A stretch of DNA of 64,000 nt from a virus, in IMG/VR virus record IMGVR_UViG_3300021138_000014, positions 1 to 64,000 of that record; one strand, written 5' to 3'. A model generated the notes under the pieces. It was given only the letters and a program-made list of their open reading frames with translations. It did not search any database and was not told where the DNA came from. The translations under genes were made by a program, and so were the position numbers. How positions within the stretch are numbered: position 1 is the stretch's first letter; every line of letters starts with the position of its first letter. Positions 752 to 23,789 of the stretch are shown piece after piece.

Positions 752-794
752 TAACCGCTCGTGTGAGATACATCACGCGGGCGGTTATTTTTTT
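752..794 (+). terminator. intrinsic terminator whose upper stem/loop is a CRP-like box
   Basis: TAACCGCTCGTGTGA-GATACA-TCACGCGGGCGGTTA followed by a T tract. Confidence 0.8.
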
Positions 795-823
795 ATAAGG
801 GGAATGCCATTACCCAAAGCCAG

Positions 824-870
824 AATGTTTGTGTTGACCCTCCCACCCCTCATCCCTTCGGGATAGGGTG
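824..870. repeat. 47-bp repeat copy 1 with C(UUCG)G hairpin
   Basis: 44/47 identical to 2264-2310; ATCCC-TTCG-GGAT core. Confidence 0.9.
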
Positions 871-948
871 TGAGAGAGATCACATGTGATTTATCTCACA
901 TTGTGAGGCCGGTCACAGTGAGCTGCGTCACATGAGATCCAGGTCACA
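869..948. promoter_or_regulatory. tandem array of five CRP/GlxR-type boxes (TGTGA-N6-TCACA)
   Basis: Boxes at 869-884, 885-900, 902-917 (perfect), 917-932 and 933-948 (one mismatch each). Confidence 0.85.
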
Positions 949-964
949 CCAGCTCGGGAGAGAG

Positions 965-1031
965 TGTGACTAGTATCACGTGCAGAATGGTAGGAATTGG
1001 AGAGAGAGAGTGAGAGACTTCTCTTACTAGG
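965..1031 (+). promoter_or_regulatory. putative promoter copy 1 (CRP-like box, AATGGTA, -10-like GAGACT, ACTAGG)
   Basis: Same elements and exact spacing as 2584-2650. Confidence 0.6.
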
Positions 1032-1064
1032 TACTCTCCTAGTTATTAGATATGGGGGCAAGAT

Positions 1065-1769
1065 ATGGACATGGCACTGAAGCCTAGTAAGGACAGGAAA
1101 GTTGCTAACTCACTCACACCGTCGGGAGGGGTACGCATTGCGAACTCTTTCGGATTACCTGCAGGATTAAATTATTCATGCCCTAGCGCCACAAGTGTAT
1201 GCTCGAAAGTCTGCTACGCGGGCAAGTTGGAGAAGATATATAAAGGGGTCAAGATTAATCTCACGCATAATTGGGATTTGGTTAAGGACGCCGATATGGA
1301 TCACGTCACTAATCTACTTAACAGCATGATTATTGATTTCATTACTGAATGCGAGCGAAAGGGTTCGGCTAAGTTATTCCGTATCCATTGGGACGGCGAT
1401 TTCTTCTCAGACACCTATATTGGCGCATGGCGTCATGTTATTGAAAGTCATCCCGACGTCCGCTTTTGGGTGTATACCCGCGTGATTCGCGCGACGGTAT
1501 TACTTAAGGGGATTGATAATCTCGCGCTCTATTTCTCCACTGATAAGGATAATTTCGCGCTCGCTAAGATTGCGCTTAAGAATGGCGCACGATTGGCGAT
1601 GTTAGATGAGACTTTCGAAGCAGGACGCGAGCGCCTAGCGTCGATTGGTGAGCGTGGCGCGATGTGTCCTGAACAGCGTGGTCAGATAGATCTAAACGGC
1701 GCGTGCGTCGCGTGCGGGTTATGTATTAAAGGTAAGACTAATATTCTATTTTCAATTACTAAGAAATAA
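1065..1769 (+). CDS. GP88-like protein (Cys-motif, radical-SAM-related)
   Basis: SFGLPAG, CPSATSVCSKVCYA, FRIHWDGDF, FWVYTR, C-terminal CPE..CVACGLC. Confidence 0.75.
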   Translation: MDMALKPSKDRKVANSLTPSGGVRIANSFGLPAGLNYSCPSATSVCSKVCYAGKLEKIYKGVKINLTHNWDLVKDADMDHVTNLLNSMIIDFITECERKGSAKLFRIHWDGDFFSDTYIGAWRHVIESHPDVRFWVYTRVIRATVLLKGIDNLALYFSTDKDNFALAKIALKNGARLAMLDETFEAGRERLASIGERGAMCPEQRGQIDLNGACVACGLCIKGKTNILFSITKK

Positions 1770-1779
1770 GGAGAAGATC

Positions 1780-2064
1780 ATGGGACGTATTTTTGCAGAA
1801 GAATTGGCAAGCGGTATTGGTGGCATTACCTTAGAAAGAGGGGTTGCCATTCATATGGCGGGTAATCTCTACCCTCCTCCTCCTTCTTACATGGTTCCCG
1901 TCGCGATCGAAGCGCTAAATTCGATCTTAATCGAAGATGATTGGGAGAAGGAGATTGATCTTCCCGACGGCGTGGAATGGCGTGGGGAGAAGAAGGTTCC
2001 CGCTCGATTCGTAATCGACGCGTTCCGGTTAGAAGCTTTTCTAGATGGGGAGGATGAAGAATGA
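1780..2064 (+). CDS. hypothetical phage protein
   Basis: AGGAG RBS; HMAGNLYPPPP motif. Confidence 0.75.
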   Translation: MGRIFAEELASGIGGITLERGVAIHMAGNLYPPPPSYMVPVAIEALNSILIEDDWEKEIDLPDGVEWRGEKKVPARFVIDAFRLEAFLDGEDEE

Positions 2065-2183
2065 CCAAGCCTAAGAATGAATTTGAAGAGGCTATGAATA
2101 ACGTACTGATCGAAGGCTTGAAGAGAATTGATAGGTTGACGATCATCCCAGTAGGATTCGACGAGGATCCTCCCAAAGAATAG
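2061..2183 (+). CDS. 40-aa hypothetical protein (MTKPKNEFEEAM...)
   Basis: Read manually; ATGA overlap, GGAGG upstream, ends before terminator. Confidence 0.55.
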   Translation: MTKPKNEFEEAMNNVLIEGLKRIDRLTIIPVGFDEDPPKE

Positions 2184-2211
2184 ATTTCCTTGCCCCCGCT
2201 CGGAAAACGAG

Positions 2212-2243
2212 AACCCTCAGCGCCGATCCGCTGGGGGTTTTTT
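2212..2243 (+). terminator. intrinsic terminator
   Basis: AACCCTCAGCG-CCGATC-CGCTGGGGGTT plus T tract. Confidence 0.8.
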
Positions 2244-2244
2244 A

Positions 2245-2262
2245 TTCGAACACGTGTTCGAA
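2245..2262. promoter_or_regulatory. LexA SOS box (actinobacterial/Gram-positive type)
   Basis: Perfect palindrome TTCGAACACGTGTTCGAA = TCGAAC-N4-GTTCGA. Confidence 0.8.
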
Positions 2263-2263
2263 A

Positions 2264-2310
2264 AATGTTTGTGTTGACCCACCCTCCCCTTATCCCTTCG
2301 GGATAGGGTG
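2264..2310. repeat. 47-bp repeat copy 2 with C(UUCG)G hairpin
   Basis: 44/47 identical to 824-870. Confidence 0.9.
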
Positions 2311-2345
2311 GAGAGACTTGTCAACTCGACACGCCCGGAGCTGCA

Positions 2346-2387
2346 TGTGAGATTCGTCACACTGCGGCCGGTGTGATCCAGGTCACA
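2346..2387. promoter_or_regulatory. two perfect CRP/GlxR-type boxes
   Basis: TGTGA-GATTCG-TCACA 2346-2361; TGTGA-TCCAGG-TCACA 2372-2387. Confidence 0.8.
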
Positions 2388-2388
2388 C

Positions 2389-2404
2389 TGTTTCACGTGA
2401 AACA
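2389..2404. promoter_or_regulatory. parS: parS site (ParB/Spo0J loading site)
   Basis: Exact match to the bacterial consensus TGTTTCACGTGAAACA. Confidence 0.85.
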
Positions 2405-2551
2405 AATTGTCGACAAATCTACAAAATCAATGCCCCTGGAAATGTCGACAAAGCGATAAGGCTACTATGGAGAGAGAGAAGAGAGAGAGCAGTCGCGTAA
2501 CCAGATGAGAGACGCCTTCGGCGATCTCCTATCATGATGAGAGAGTTCAGC

Positions 2552-2567
2552 TGTGATGCAGATCACA
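2552..2567. promoter_or_regulatory. perfect CRP/GlxR-type box
   Basis: TGTGA-TGCAGA-TCACA. Confidence 0.75.
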
Positions 2568-2583
2568 TGACTAAATGGGGGTA

Positions 2584-2650
2584 TGTGACCTATATCACGC
2601 TCTAAATGGTATCTATTCACCTATACATAAATTAGGCTTGCCTCACTAGG
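2584..2650 (+). promoter_or_regulatory. putative promoter copy 2 (CRP-like box, AATGGTA, -10 TAGGCT, ACTAGG)
   Basis: Identical spacing to 965-1031; upstream of AGGAGG RBS and ORF 2685. Confidence 0.65.
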
Positions 2651-2684
2651 GAATCCTCTATCCCTCTCTAGTAGGAGGCATTAA

Positions 2685-5677: not shown

Positions 5678-5845
5678 ATGACACAGAACGGATGGACGGA
5701 AAACGATGGGTTCTTGTACGCGGATTGCCTAAAGTGCAATGATCGTACGGTACACATTGTGCTTAAACCAAAGGAAGGTTTTCCACCGTACGAGTGTGTG
5801 CAGTGCACATTCAACTGGGAGAGAGTAGAGAGTGAGGGTCGATGA
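5678..5845 (+). CDS. 55-aa zinc-ribbon protein (MTQNGWTENDG...)
   Basis: Read manually; CLKC...CVQC; ATGA overlap with MTase. Confidence 0.6.
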   Translation: MTQNGWTENDGFLYADCLKCNDRTVHIVLKPKEGFPPYECVQCTFNWERVESEGR

Positions 5846-6567
5846 AAGCCGTTTCATTATTTGCTGGTGTAGGTGGGTTTGATCTTGCGCTGCACCGAGC
5901 AGGTGTTGAAGTTGTTGCGTCATGCGAAATTGATAAGCATGCACGCGCTGTATTAGAAAAGCAATTCCCAAACGTTCCACTAATCAACGATGTAAAGGAT
6001 GTGACAGGTGATCAACTTAGAGAACTCGGATTCGAAGGTTCTAACGGAATTATTGTCGGAGGATTTCCATGCCAAGATTTGTCCGTTGCAGGAAAGAGAG
6101 CCGGACTTGCTGGAGCTCGATCTGGACTCTTCTGGGAAATCTGCCGTATCCTCGAAGAAACGCAAACGAAGTGGTTCGTCCTCGAAAATGTCCCTGGATT
6201 GTTGTCATCCAACAACGGAGCAGACATGGGAACCGTTATCCAAGCGTTGGTTGAGCTCGGGTATGGGATCGCCTACAGGATTCTTGACGCTCAGTTCTTC
6301 GGAGTCCCCCAGCGTCGCCGTCGAGTCTTCATTGTTGGATGTCTTGGAGACGACGGGCGATCACCTGCAGAAGTACTTGCTCTCATCGAAGGCATGCGAG
6401 GGCATTCTGAGAAGAGCGACAAATCGCGGAAAAACTCTACCTTCGCAACTCCACTCAGCACTTCAGGCGAGGGCAGAGATGTAGCGAACACGATCTCGGC
6501 TGAGTTGTATCACCGATCAACGATCGTCAATCAGGATATTAATAATGGTCACCTCGTGGTGGGTTAA
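5842..6567 (+). CDS. C5 cytosine DNA methyltransferase, N-terminal polypeptide (motifs I-VIII)
   Basis: SLFAGVGG, GGFPCQDLS, ENVPGL, PQRRRRVFIVG. Confidence 0.92.
   Translation: MKAVSLFAGVGGFDLALHRAGVEVVASCEIDKHARAVLEKQFPNVPLINDVKDVTGDQLRELGFEGSNGIIVGGFPCQDLSVAGKRAGLAGARSGLFWEICRILEETQTKWFVLENVPGLLSSNNGADMGTVIQALVELGYGIAYRILDAQFFGVPQRRRRVFIVGCLGDDGRSPAEVLALIEGMRGHSEKSDKSRKNSTFATPLSTSGEGRDVANTISAELYHRSTIVNQDINNGHLVVG
6008..6484 (+). CDS. nested out-of-frame MTase beta-type polypeptide (M.EcoHK31I beta-like)
   Basis: GTG start with AAGGA RBS inside the MTase gene, +1 frame; C-terminal SSLLDVLE...KYLLSSKACEGILRRATNRGKTLP. Confidence 0.7.
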   Translation: MINLENSDSKVLTELLSEDFHAKICPLQEREPDLLELDLDSSGKSAVSSKKRKRSGSSSKMSLDCCHPTTEQTWEPLSKRWLSSGMGSPTGFLTLSSSESPSVAVESSLLDVLETTGDHLQKYLLSSKACEGILRRATNRGKTLPSQLHSALQARAEM

Positions 6568-7285
6568 AAGTCGGAGAGCGCAAAGCGTTCACGACTTTGA
6601 GACATGGGTAGCGGAAGGAGTAGTGCCGACATTGAATGCATTCGAGAATAACGGAGACACACGAGCAACAGTTCTTGTGTTTTACAGCGGTACGTTTGGT
6701 GAAGTAAGAATTCAGGGAAAGGTGATTAATACGTTGCCAGCAAAAATGGGTACAGGCGGTAATAACACACCGATGGCTGTCTATCCGATTCAGGATGGTC
6801 GCGAGATGGAGAAGAAACAAAACGGTCTTGGTTTAGGAGAAGATTCTGCACCTGCTTACACAGTTGATACAACTGGTGGGCAAGCGGTAGCGTATCCAAT
6901 CCAAGGAACGATGGTTGGTCGTAGTGATACGGCTGGCCCTAATGGAAAAGGTTATGGGGATGTTCAAGATCCCATGTTCACTATGGATACTGTTGGAGGT
7001 AATGCTGTGGCAATGGTTGGTAACTTTGAGCTTTACGACTTTCCAAAGGAAGAAGTATCACCAAGCCTCAACGCCCGGCGGGCAAAGGACACGATGGTAT
7101 ATGAAGATGTGCCGTCAATGGTTCGCCGCCTAACTCCTATGGAGTGCGAACGCCTTCAAGGATTCCCAGATAACTGGACAGAAATCGGATCCGATTCTCA
7201 ACGTTACAAGCAAATGGGTAATGCTGTTGCTGTGCCTGTTGTTGAGTGGATCATTAATCGGTTAGTGGAGGTCAATAACAGATGA
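6545..7285 (+). CDS. C5 cytosine DNA methyltransferase, C-terminal polypeptide (TRD-like repeats, motifs IX-X)
   Basis: RRLTPMECERLQGFPD, RYKQMGNAVAVPVV; AGGA RBS. Confidence 0.88.
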   Translation: MVTSWWVKSRRAQSVHDFETWVAEGVVPTLNAFENNGDTRATVLVFYSGTFGEVRIQGKVINTLPAKMGTGGNNTPMAVYPIQDGREMEKKQNGLGLGEDSAPAYTVDTTGGQAVAYPIQGTMVGRSDTAGPNGKGYGDVQDPMFTMDTVGGNAVAMVGNFELYDFPKEEVSPSLNARRAKDTMVYEDVPSMVRRLTPMECERLQGFPDNWTEIGSDSQRYKQMGNAVAVPVVEWIINRLVEVNNR

Positions 7286-7431
7286 CACTAGCAACATTTA
7301 TTTACTGGACGATCCTGTTGGGAACGTACTACATCTTTGCAATTGGAATTTACATAATCTTGCGATTAACTGGTATTACCAAGTTATTCCCTCAACCAGT
7401 ACAGGCGGTGCTACATGATCTCTTCTTCTAA
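7282..7431 (+). CDS. 49-aa membrane peptide (MTLATFIYWTILLG...)
   Basis: Read manually; GGAGG RBS, ATGA overlap, hydrophobic. Confidence 0.6.
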   Translation: MTLATFIYWTILLGTYYIFAIGIYIILRLTGITKLFPQPVQAVLHDLFF

Positions 7432-7771
7432 ATACGATTACGCAGTTCATGATCTATTGGGTAAACCGATCACTATTGCTGAATGGGTCAAACTTACCAA
7501 AAACCCATGGAGCAAGGAAAACTACGTGGGACCTAATCGCGTTCTCACTATATGGACAGGTGTGGATGCCCCAGATTATGATCCAAACAATGAGCGCATG
7601 ACTAAGACCAGCCGGGTACCTGAGATCCCCATGATCTATGTAACTTACGCGTGGAATGCTGACCTTCGGATCACCCATAGCAAGCGCTACAAGAGTATGC
7701 ATGATGCCGAACTTGGACACGCACGAGTGCTCGAACTATTGAGCAAGTCGCTAGCACTAGTGACAGTCTGA
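7415..7771 (+). CDS. hypothetical protein
   Basis: ORF; VLTIWTGVD...RYKS..DAELGH pattern. Confidence 0.65.
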   Translation: MISSSKYDYAVHDLLGKPITIAEWVKLTKNPWSKENYVGPNRVLTIWTGVDAPDYDPNNERMTKTSRVPEIPMIYVTYAWNADLRITHSKRYKSMHDAELGHARVLELLSKSLALVTV

Positions 7772-15516: not shown

Positions 15517-15807
15517 TTAATCCTCTGTAGTTACGGGGGCTTTTCTCTCTTGCAAAGCATGCCTTACTGCCTCGGCGGTGCGCTCGCTATCCGTCTTGCG
15601 ACTTTCAGATAACTTGGAAACAATGAGGTTTGATAGGTCATCTTCAGCCAGAAAATCTGTCATTTCTTTGGTACCAGTACGAATGTCAGTACGGGAGGCT
15701 AAACGATCGACAGTAAATACTTTGTCTAGTTCAACAACGGCACGCCAAGTACCATCCCATTCTTTAACCATAATAAAAGCGGTCTGAGCATCCGCACGAT
15801 CTGTCAT
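15517..15807 (-). CDS. hypothetical protein
   Basis: ATGA overlap in operon. Confidence 0.7.
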   Translation of the reverse strand: MTDRADAQTAFIMVKEWDGTWRAVVELDKVFTVDRLASRTDIRTGTKEMTDFLAEDDLSNLIVSKLSESRKTDSERTAEAVRHALQERKAPVTTED

Positions 15808-16358
15808 GTGTAAAGTTTTTTCGCTTGGTTTGATTTCATCATGTTAAAGCTCTTTACTGGGCAGAAATCGCACAAATAAAATGAAGGTAGTTCTGAGGTT
15901 GATAATCCAGCCTCTCGACGTTCTTCTTTCATCACTTCAATCTTGATTAACTTTGGACCTGACTTATAGTCTGGGCAAGCGCCTTCTGGACGTAAGTGTG
16001 TTTGGAAACACTTCATAGCATCGGCAGAGTAGTTATCTTTAGCGGCGTAAACTTCTGGACCAAGACCCTCTGATTGTGTGAACAATTCTGCGGACATCCT
16101 CCTCTTACCACTGTCGCTGTTCCATACGGCAAAGTCAACGTCTACAAGCAAACCCATGTGAGGTTGCGGACGTTGGTGTGCTTCAAGTGCGCGCTTAAGG
16201 AAAAGGTTTTGTTCTTGATGATTGATTGGCCAACGTTCATCAACTGGGATCTCTTCAAATGAACGGCAAGTTTTACATGCCAAAATAAGGACCTTATGTT
16301 CGTCCTTTTTAGTTGCTAATTGGGACAGGTCAAACGCTTTATAGGGATCGATAGCCAT
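15804..16358 (-). CDS. Cys-rich hypothetical protein
   Basis: CKTC, C..H..P...C, LCDFCP. Confidence 0.75.
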   Translation of the reverse strand: MAIDPYKAFDLSQLATKKDEHKVLILACKTCRSFEEIPVDERWPINHQEQNLFLKRALEAHQRPQPHMGLLVDVDFAVWNSDSGKRRMSAELFTQSEGLGPEVYAAKDNYSADAMKCFQTHLRPEGACPDYKSGPKLIKIEVMKEERREAGLSTSELPSFYLCDFCPVKSFNMMKSNQAKKLYT

Positions 16359-16391
16359 GCCCAGATCCTACCCTATGTGAGGTAGGTCACA
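16356..16391 (-). promoter_or_regulatory. leaderless promoter (TAGGAT-N6-ATG) overlapped by a perfect CRP-type box
   Basis: TGTGA-GGTAGG-TCACA at 16376-16391; -10 at 16365-16370. Confidence 0.65.
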
Positions 16392-22628: not shown

Positions 22629-23478
22629 TTACCTGCTCCTCTGTATAGGATCTGCACTTCGTGCAACCTGCGGTACCGTTAATATTACACAGAGGGGGCG
22701 TGTTTTGCGAAATCGCGTCAAGGATTGACTGGGCTTGAGCAAACTTATCAAGCACTGAAAAATCATTTTTCTTAACAACAAATTCTTTAAGAGCATGGCT
22801 ACCCTTTGCCTCGTAAAGCAGTAGGGCTTCCTGTGGTGCATTTTTCATACCCATAAGTTCCATAAGTTTCATATAAATCTGAGCTTGGTTGATGTGATCA
22901 GAAAATGGGTGCTCTAAAGAATCAAAGGCTTTATCAAAATTATTGTTATGTTCGATCAAACGACCCCGATCATACCAACCTAGGGTTCCTACCCCCACTG
23001 ATTTGATCTCTAGTAGTAGGGGATCACCGAAGCCAAGCAATAGCCCATCTGCACTTCCGCTAATGCGGAGTGGTTCATGGCTTAATGGGATTTCATTGTA
23101 ATGAAGGTGTCGTGGATCTACCTTATGGTCACTGGGTAAACCTGTGAAAGTCTCCCGGCAATCGTCGCAATAGTATTTGCCGTACAACTTGTTCATATCT
23201 TTAAACCAGTTTTGCCAGCGATCATGAATCATGTGTCCAGTAGCAAACACAATTTCTCGTTGTAGGCTAGTTACTTCCGGGGCTTTAGGAGCACCTTGTA
23301 ATAAAAAGTATTGTTCTCTATGGCACCACTTGTTGCTTGCCATTGCTGAGGGGTGAATGACGTCTTGACGACGTGAGGTATCTTTTTCTTTAGCAATAAG
23401 CCATCGTTCAACTGGGCCAATTACTCTGGTGCTTTTGTCAACATTTAAAAACGCTTTCAGTGCACCAGTTGGCTTCAT
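22609..23478 (-). CDS. Cas4-like PD-(D/E)XK exonuclease
   Basis: HPS..C, G..IH, GSADG, LEIKS, QAQIY, C-terminal C..C..C. Confidence 0.8.
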   Translation of the reverse strand: MKPTGALKAFLNVDKSTRVIGPVERWLIAKEKDTSRRQDVIHPSAMASNKWCHREQYFLLQGAPKAPEVTSLQREIVFATGHMIHDRWQNWFKDMNKLYGKYYCDDCRETFTGLPSDHKVDPRHLHYNEIPLSHEPLRISGSADGLLLGFGDPLLLEIKSVGVGTLGWYDRGRLIEHNNNFDKAFDSLEHPFSDHINQAQIYMKLMELMGMKNAPQEALLLYEAKGSHALKEFVVKKNDFSVLDKFAQAQSILDAISQNTPPLCNINGTAGCTKCRSYTEEQVNERTSD

Positions 23479-23789
23479 CTTTTCCTAACCCACTCTTCCA
23501 ATGTCTTATCGTTCTTCTTGGCTTTACGCTTAAGAGCATTGCGTTCACGATGGCTGAGTCCTCCCCAGATACCGTGTTGCTCGTTGTTGCCTTCGGCGTA
23601 CAACATGCACTCAATTCGTACGGGACATTCTGCCTTACCGTCTTTGCCAAAGCAAATCGCTTTAGCCTTGTCGGCAATCAGTTTGTATTTGGCTTTATCG
23701 CGTGGGGGAAACCAAAGTTCTGTGTCCATAGATCGACACTTGGCTTTGTGGCGCCAACCTTCTATTCCTTCGTCTTCGTACAAGAACAC
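23475..23789 (-). CDS. whiB: WhiB-family transcription factor
   Basis: W...AKC....LWFP, AKAIC, CPVRIEC, GIWGG.S.RER. Confidence 0.9.
   Translation of the reverse strand: MFLYEDEGIEGWRHKAKCRSMDTELWFPPRDKAKYKLIADKAKAICFGKDGKAECPVRIECMLYAEGNNEQHGIWGGLSHRERNALKRKAKKNDKTLEEWVRKR

Follow-up and report, generated by a model that had tools for sequence, protein, structure and literature searches.

What do two long non-coding gaps near one end of a phage genome do for the phage? The DNA analyzed here, hereafter the window, is the first 64 kb of the IMG/VR virus record IMGVR_UViG_3300021138_000014 (called G000), a linear sequence of 82,374 bp estimated to be 86% complete. Small genes on the + strand occupy 1-9.4 kb of the window, and the long gaps of this arm, at 741-1064 (island 1) and 2184-2684 (island 2), flank an operon that encodes a GP88 protein. 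An original prediction, made from the letters alone, held that the islands carry far more host-protein binding sites than two promoters need and may therefore act as a decoy or docking platform. We lean, with only modest confidence, toward a different answer based on motif positions and their conservation: that the islands are control cassettes of two small-gene (presumed early) operons in a ~96-kb myovirus of freshwater actinobacteria, bound by a host protein of the Crp/GlxR type. The phage would then probably be reading host signals, rather than using the islands mainly as a decoy.

The dyad TGTGA-N6-TCACA, here called the box, occurs 13 times in the window when one mismatch is allowed, compared to 2.6 +/- 1.5 times in shuffled sequences, none of 100 of which reached 13. 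Eleven of the 13 lie inside the two gaps, in agreement with the count given by the original prediction: six are perfect (starting at 869, 885, 902, 2346, 2372, and 2552) and five have one mismatch (762, 917, 933, 965, and 2584). The accompanying chance figure of ~0.06 perfect boxes per 64 kb is arithmetically right. Outside the gaps the window has a perfect box at 16376 and a match at 460 that is probably due to chance, and the whole 82-kb record adds only a one-mismatch site at 65439. Five boxes of island 1 (starts 869, 885, 902, 917, and 933) abut one another at a spacing of 15-17 bp to form an array at 869-948. Island 2 has a pair of perfect boxes, at 2346-2361 and 2372-2387, with centers 26 bp apart. 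Nearest to the putative promoters are TGTGACTAGTATCACG at 965-980 in island 1 and TGTGACCTATATCACG at 2584-2599 in island 2; both of these have a mismatch, the other boxes being mostly perfect.

The claim of an identically spaced promoter in the two islands also proved accurate, as the distance from the start of the promoter-proximal box to a shared ACTAGG is 61 nt in both. A scan of the islands for the sigma70 consensus found no -35/-10 promoter. The putative core promoters, P1 (987-1026) and P2 (2606-2645), both on the + strand, have instead a 12-nt block (ATGGTAGGAATT at 987-998 and ATGGTATCTATT at 2606-2617, respectively), 15 nt, a -10 hexamer (GAGACT at 1014-1019 and TAGGCT at 2633-2638), 6 nt, and the predicted start, A1026 or A2645, in ACTAGG. 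Two other candidates for the -10, TAGGAA (991) and TATCTA (2610), were rejected because relatives place both in the 12-nt block, with the -10 15 nt further on. Both predicted transcripts start with ACTAGG and can form a 5′ hairpin. Counted from the predicted starts, the last box of each island is centered at -53.5 and is preceded, 32 bp further up, by a second one at -85.5, and this placing of two boxes at the same positions in each island points to a regulatory architecture. The -85.5 box of island 1 is the last member of the five-box array (centers -149.5, -133.5, -116.5, -101.5, and -85.5), whose alternate members at -116.5 and -149.5 are on the same helical face. The -85.5 box of island 2 is the perfect box at 2552-2567, the counterpart of which is CGTGATGCAGGTCACA in three related loci (L005, L007, and L154; L-numbers denote loci and G-numbers genomes).

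The window's family follows the same geometry. Among its ten box-carrying genomes, 30 of 98 box contexts have a TANNNT hexamer that starts 33 or 34 nt downstream of the box, with other offsets represented about once each, and the family promoter layout is box, N6, 12-nt block, N15, -10, N6, A. P2 has its TANNNT exactly 33 nt past the box and P1 has an identical layout; P1-like variants of the form GANNNT-TCTCYT-A recur in G006, G026, and G028. The 12-nt block is constant within a genome and differs between lineages. The fixed distance from box to -10 in the relatives leads us to regard the island boxes at -53.5 and -85.5 as promoter elements. In a distant group of GP88-encoding relatives, the box ends 16, 26, 36, or 46 nt (with a further class at 31) before AATGTCAG, which is there part of a PafBC-type promoter, tGTCgg-N10-tANNNT. 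P1 and P2 are without the PafBC element, their block (ATGGTA...) being different, and the palindromes TGTCGACA at 2408 and 2443 of island 2 do not stand at the spacing to a -10 that membership of the PafBC class requires. Four metagenome runs, in which variants were few overall, had no reported variant inside any box, and a natural variant seen in two freshwater runs, G993T, shifts the P1 block toward the P2 block.

To place the islands in a wider sample, we used GP88-linked relatives in IMG/VR, of which 597 were confirmed, 80 loci kept, and 30 loci retained as a non-redundant subset, with reversed motif words and patterns as enrichment controls. Perfect boxes occur in 78 of the 80 loci, at several per 8.7 kb, and the spacers between them diverge, the pattern of conservation that had been proposed as a check on the original prediction. 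With redundancy removed there are 100 boxes in 28 of the 30 loci, and a single match to the reversed pattern. The PafBC promoter pattern has 66 matches in 20 of the 30 loci. In all, five host-type motifs are strongly enriched over the reversed controls in this group (CRP, DnaA, PafBC promoter, SOS box, and parS), bearing out the statement that such sites match the consensus sequences of host factors at far from chance frequency. The GP88 arms of the cultured Streptomyces phages Wakanda and Paradiddles have no box enrichment. Abutting pairs or longer runs of perfect boxes were also seen in 30 unrelated-looking IMG/VR contigs (L255-L283) with GC contents of 0.36-0.66, those holding at least ten boxes including L270 and L275; this range fits a widely conserved binder.

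Within the window's family the boxes are either plentiful or all but missing. G000, G006, G014, G016, G019, G026, G028, G031, and G032 have 2-11 perfect copies, and G007 to G012 and G018, which are complete or nearly so, have 0-1. In G006, the closest of the complete relatives, each cassette has about one box (G006 to G011 are complete, collinear, and ~96 kb long with terminal repeats), and arrays of 2-4 boxes occupy the slot of the window's five-box array in G014, G026, G028, and G031. Box-free genomes carry the perfect DnaA box TTATCCACA (11 copies in G018, 10 in G010, 7 in G007, 6 in G008, and 4 in G009, compared to 0-1 for controls), placed, at loci L180-L194, L233-L237, and L248-L252, in the cassette slot that the window fills with CRP-type boxes; G011 carries the word CGACACGCC 12 times. 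In G010 the DnaA box directly follows a conserved leader element (described below), the slot taken in the window by the box array, and in the box-rich genomes DnaA boxes are only at control level. CRP-type and DnaA boxes thus look mutually exclusive between sister lineages, an alternation to be expected both if the phage regulators are specific to lineages and if the phages choose among the regulators of the host. Other lineages fill the cassette slot with other repeats, such as ATCGTTAT repeats or arrays of TTATTCTAGCCAAC. The latter are found in L135 (G024), where up to about ten copies fill the slot after the leader element in three cassettes; no known host consensus matches TTATTCTAGCCAAC.

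Who binds the boxes? The original prediction stated that the proteins matching the island sites are not encoded in the window, and for CRP, ParB, and LexA our searches agree. G000 has no CRP-type helix-turn-helix (HTH) or cyclic nucleotide-binding domain, no sigma70 region 4, no LexA DNA-binding domain, and no ParB_N domain. Searches for a CRP-type HTH were negative in five genomes with boxes from the distant group, four of which are 100% complete; within the family, the complete G006 and four other records gave no match beyond a sub-threshold one of 11.7 bits in G014. ParB_N was likewise not found in the complete G006, G009, and G010, each of which has one parS. The T7-type RNA polymerase family had no match in the record, although the control genomes gave no match either. 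We also profiled gene content by tblastn in eight box-rich and seven box-free relatives, and no protein was present in all eight and absent from all seven. The best correlate was GP88, found in all nine sizeable box-rich records and in two of the seven box-free ones, G012 and G018 (Fisher p ~0.005, with the lineages not being independent). Among the proteins that this phage shares with the distant box-rich group, moreover, only GP88 is lacking in the three box-free genomes that were compared.

We rejected GP88 as the box binder because its structural model (pLDDT, the predicted local distance difference test score, 77) is an enzyme-like alpha/beta barrel, not a DNA binder, and because of its presence in box-free G012 and G018. 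The model has two invariant cysteine clusters (C39, C46, and C50; C201, C214, C217, and C220), which suggests that GP88 is an iron-sulfur enzyme; a PDB profile search was empty. Among cultured phages, GP88 is found mainly in those of Mycobacterium and Streptomyces. The product of the open reading frame (ORF) at 7415-7771 was also rejected, as the distant box-rich group lacks it and box-free G012 has it. Most proteins of the small-gene arm have no recognizable family. The lack of a matching phage gene or of any protein that tracks the boxes, the five enriched host-type motifs, and the box pairs in contigs of wide-ranging GC content together point to a Crp/GlxR-type protein of the host as the most economical, and most likely, candidate binder.

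The remaining sites of island 2 could also be read by host proteins. Its parS, TGTTTCACGTGAAACA at 2389-2404, is of the chromosomal type and matches the consensus tGTTtCAcGTGAAAca at 16 of 16 positions, and its SOS (LexA) box, TCGAACACGTGTTCGA at 2246-2261, is a perfect site of the actinobacterial type; both had been read as such by the original prediction, as had the two TGTCGACA palindromes. The 14-nt parS core is present in exactly one copy in 5 of the 15 family genomes (G000, G006, G009, G010, and G016), compared to ~0.0004 expected per genome, and always lies within the arm islands, but in differing slots. With no ParB_N found in G000, G006, G009, or G010, the reader of parS would have to be the ParB of the host. 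The SOS box lies ~390 nt upstream of P2 and abuts the leader element, 2 nt before its second copy. The pattern TCGAAC-N4-GTTCGA occurs once or twice in five genomes, including G007, G016, G019, and G028, and also in loci L011, L012, L016, L123, L125, L135, and L154, the relatives' SOS boxes being mostly TCGAACAnnTGTTCGA; in L154 it lies 8 nt before a promoter box. In L123, L125, and L135 the SOS box adjoins a G-rich word, TTAACCCTGGGGGGGTC. In three relatives this word, with variants, also forms a special unit with a box on either side (G006, 1901-1955; G020, locus L126, 11259-11310; G032, 23445-23497), which in G006 is located at the start of the small-gene arm, a part that is missing from the present record.

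Further modules separate these sites. The GACAC next to a TTGACA, which the original prediction had attributed to WhiA, is present as the module TTGTCAA-CT-CGACACGCC at 2318-2335 (+ strand), but the WhiA reading is weak, since the conserved word is the 9-mer CGACACGCC and nothing ties it to WhiA. This word occurs 103 times in 24 of the 30 non-redundant loci, with no occurrence of the reversed word, and the whole module precedes boxes also in L009, L013, and L027. Both CGACACGCC and another word, TTGTCGACAA, are putative protein-binding motifs. Positions 2405-2489 (+ strand) hold two (A)ATGTCGACAAA palindromes (with TGTCGACA at 2408-2415 and 2443-2450) and then AAGGCTACTAT and a GA-tract, and the order AATGTCGACAAA(T/G)CG ... 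AGGCTACTG ... GA-rich tract is kept in the long islands of L005, L006, L007, L109, L125, L154, and L171. In long islands (L005, L006, L007, L109, L154, and L170; ~2490-2550 of the window), the conserved CCAGCTCTACAGCC is followed by a hairpin whose stem changes by paired substitutions (GTTTC/GAAAC, GTTCA/TGAAC, CTCTC/GAGAG, and ATTC/GAAT), and GA-rich and CT-rich tracts flank this region, which may be a structured RNA or an attenuator.

Each island opens, as had been described, with an intrinsic terminator followed by a shared 47-nt repeat. Terminator 1 (749-790, + strand), which ends the upstream operon, has an 18-bp stem, a U7 tail, and a z-score of -8.25; the top of its hairpin is the one-mismatch box at 762-777, and a box within a hairpin directly ahead of the leader element is also found in G031/G032. 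Just before this terminator, one freshwater run (X13) has a contig that lacks 89 bp at 643-733 and so loses most of a 30-codon ORF (648-740). Terminator 2 (2209-2248, + strand), which ends the GP88 operon, has a 14-bp stem, a U-run, and z = -3.8. An Rfam scan matched no family, giving only a sub-threshold ctRNA match over terminator 1.

The repeat, which we call the cassette-leader element, is present on the + strand at 824-870 (copy 1: TGTTTGTGTTGACCC, a C-tract, a small hairpin, and TAGGGT leading into a GAGAG tract) and at 2264-2310 (copy 2: 47 nt, 94% identical). It is part of a wider element, TGTTTGTGTTGRCCC, C-tract, variable insert, (T)AGGGA(A/G)T, then AGAGAG, of which relatives have 49 distinct copies, each of them the first feature past a terminator and in the same orientation as the small-gene arm. 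The pair of boxes at 2346-2387 of island 2 is the counterpart of the arrays that follow this element in relatives. A copy in L006 is 100% identical to 824-870 of the window, and the flanking proteins are only ~60% identical. We rejected the leader element as a standard promoter, as its TTGRCC-to-TAGGGA distance varies from 11 to 24 nt and TANNNT is missing in most variants. In L101, L133, L144, and L155 its 5′ part, ATGTTTGTGTTGG, is also found as long inverted repeats separated by 45-100 bp (in L144 with arms of 23 bp and a parS directly after), which suggests that it may be a discrete binding site or an RNA stem.

The cassette order would therefore be the terminator of the previous operon, the leader element, variable protein-binding modules, and a core promoter without a -35, composed of the 12-nt block, N15, a (T/G)ANNNT -10, N6, and a start at the A of ACTAGG. 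The box would be the upstream promoter element of the family, one copy ending 33 nt before the -10 and a second lying three helical turns further up. Approaching from a single helical face, a dimeric regulator bound at -53.5 and -85.5 would contact either RNA polymerase or a factor seated on the 12-nt block, and would thereby determine promoter strength. Host LexA would recognize the lone SOS box, and host ParB the lone parS. The remaining boxes, in the five-box array, the 2346/2372 pair, and the terminator, may be auxiliary, raising local occupancy, blocking read-through, or buffering the regulator. The first phage genes, and perhaps the fate of the phage DNA, would in this way be coupled to host physiology, as in phi29 with Spo0A and Spo0J.

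The known promoters that the islands most recall are the class I CRP promoters (E. coli lac type) which, like actinobacterial Crp/GlxR sites, have the same 16-bp dyad. Shared with these are boxes upstream of a core promoter, steps of one helical turn (in the relatives), and tandem in-phase sites. Unlike class I promoters, the nearest box is at -53.5 from a predicted start and not at -61.5, boxes abut in arrays at 15-17 bp, and there is no -35 box, its place being taken by a lineage-specific 12-nt block here and by a PafBC-type -26 element in relatives; moreover, the sites here are on a lytic-type phage and their binder is putative. Loci of the datA type in E. coli, clusters of high-affinity sites that titrate a global DNA-binding protein as copy number rises, are the known analog of the decoy idea, but the island arrays differ from them in being adjacent to, and in phase with, promoters.

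PafBC-dependent promoters, which are read by sigma adaptation, consist of tGTCgg-N10-tANNNT and have no -35 box (PMC8635444). P1 and P2 resemble them in having a -10 and an upstream block without a -35 box, and relatives drive the same arm from PafBC-type promoters, although P1 and P2 do not have the -26 element. In the Bacillus phage phi29 the early promoters carry Spo0A boxes and the genome has five parS sites of the host type, through which the phage suspends the lytic cycle and enters the spore, so that the state of the host governs both the course of lysis and the destination of the genome (PMC2731898). The phage studied here is similar in that, with no ParB or regulator of its own, it carries putative host-regulator boxes at presumed early promoters together with a host-type parS. 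It differs from phi29 in its host phylum, in having Crp-, LexA-, and ParB-type sites instead of those for Spo0A and Spo0J, and in having one parS rather than five, with no spore involved and a function deduced here from sequence only. We found no description in the literature of such boxes on actinophages, nor, phi29 excepted, of host-type parS sites on phages without ParB.

Several points weigh against a host Crp/GlxR-type binder. The record is 86% complete, and the part not covered could hold a regulator gene, although the complete relative G006 argues against one of the CRP family. E. coli CRP activates from -41.5, -61.5, and -71.5, and -53.5 is not among these classical positions, so that the mode of action may differ; the 15-17 bp packing of the boxes is also tighter than the ~22-bp E. 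coli CRP site. The solitary perfect box at 16376-16391 (- strand) is 17 nt before the ATG of the gene at 15804-16358, which a TAGGAT-N6-ATG sequence suggests to be leaderless, and the box would then cover about -33 to -18, overlapping the putative core promoter in a repressor-like position unlike the island geometry. Finally, the all-or-none distribution of boxes within one collinear family also fits a lineage-specific phage factor. It is feasible, if doubtful, that the boxes serve as operators for a dimeric regulator of the phage itself, either too divergent to recognize or encoded in the missing 14%, with the regulators of sister lineages differing in specificity. This would account for the use of the same slot by other repeats elsewhere, contiguous operator arrays and a box over a core promoter are typical of phage repressors, and the many small-arm proteins without a family leave room for such a regulator. 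However, the profile returned no protein restricted to the box-rich genomes, the sole shared candidate is the enzyme-like GP88, and the complete genomes examined have no CRP-type HTH. Phage operators would, in addition, have to coincide with five separate host consensus sites, and box pairs recur across contigs of widely differing GC content.

The decoy idea, in which the islands mainly titrate host Crp, LexA, and ParB during replication, or coat or protect incoming DNA, accounts for 11 boxes at two promoters, for the recurrence of tandem arrays in relatives and other phages, and for the order of site quality, as mismatched promoter boxes next to mostly perfect distal ones would suit a high-affinity sink. 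We nevertheless consider it improbable as the main function. Relatives usually have a single box for each promoter, at a fixed helical phase, and about one per cassette in G006, so the step from a surplus of sites to a decoy is not supported; parS and the SOS box, as single sites, are poor sponges; and alternate boxes keep to the helical phase of the promoter box (-53.5, -85.5, -116.5, and -149.5). What survives of the decoy idea is that the extra boxes (array, pair, and terminator box) may possibly serve as decoys, not the two boxes per promoter that obey the family rule. That island 2 serves mainly for replication or partition (as an ori-like or centromere-like locus), or encodes a structured non-coding RNA, with the promoter features secondary, is in our estimate very unlikely. 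Its ~500 nt without an ORF, the order conserved in at least seven relatives, the parS, the pairable GA-rich and CT-rich tracts, the covarying hairpin after CCAGCTCTACAGCC, and the clustering of DnaA boxes in the same cassettes of sister lineages would all suit such a region, but no Rfam family matched, the parS slot differs between phages, and the box and promoter that close island 2 form the same unit as in island 1. We therefore retain control cassettes with a host Crp/GlxR-type binder as our preferred reading.

More speculatively, and in our view unlikely as a whole, the small-gene arm of this family could be a plug-in board for host regulators, with one cassette slot taken by Crp-type boxes in some lineages and by DnaA boxes, SOS boxes, or other repeats in sister lineages. 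High-affinity arrays would form a copy-number-dependent sink that switches off the weaker promoter boxes during replication, and through the single parS the host's ParB would take over the genome, which would then be carried in non-lytic cells.

The setting of the islands is as follows. The operon between them (1065-2183, + strand) comprises GP88 (1065-1769, PF17338) and small ORFs at 1780-2064 and 2061-2183. The remainder of the window beyond the small-gene arm is on the - strand and encodes a class II ribonucleotide reductase (RNR), DNA polymerase A, an SNF2 helicase, WhiB, SpoVS, tail sheath, portal, and terminase; this gene set leads us to consider the phage a myovirus-type actinophage. 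Near-identical sequence is present in 24 freshwater metagenome runs from at least 21 studies, with no RNA run listed for the region, and Megablast of the first 8 kb against a phage collection gave no match. An RNR homology search of genome contigs for a host returned only a probably mis-binned phage contig: L213 (JBDNFI010000028.1, 106 kb), filed in a Cyclobacteriaceae metagenome-assembled genome, encodes an RNR 74% identical to that of the record and is probably a phage genome of the same group. The arm also encodes a C-5 cytosine DNA methyltransferase that is split into overlapping ORFs at 5842-6567 and 6545-7285 (N- and C-terminal parts of PF00145); the same two-ORF split recurs in G006 and G028, which makes an assembly artifact improbable.

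New here are the rule of 33-34 nt from box to -10 together with the 12-nt block, the pairing of boxes at -53.5 and -85.5, the back-to-back arrays, the way in which CRP-type boxes alternate with DnaA boxes from one sister lineage to another, and the occurrence of just one parS in genomes that have no ParB. If the preferred reading is true, infection by these phages would start via the host's cAMP, DNA-damage, and chromosome-partition proteins, and host physiology would gate lysis in dominant freshwater bacteria. The fixed -53.5 geometry, and likewise the alternation of box types and the lone parS without a ParB, would provide a concrete promoter model for actinobacterial Crp, and the islands may represent an actinobacterial counterpart of the Spo0A/Spo0J strategy of phi29.

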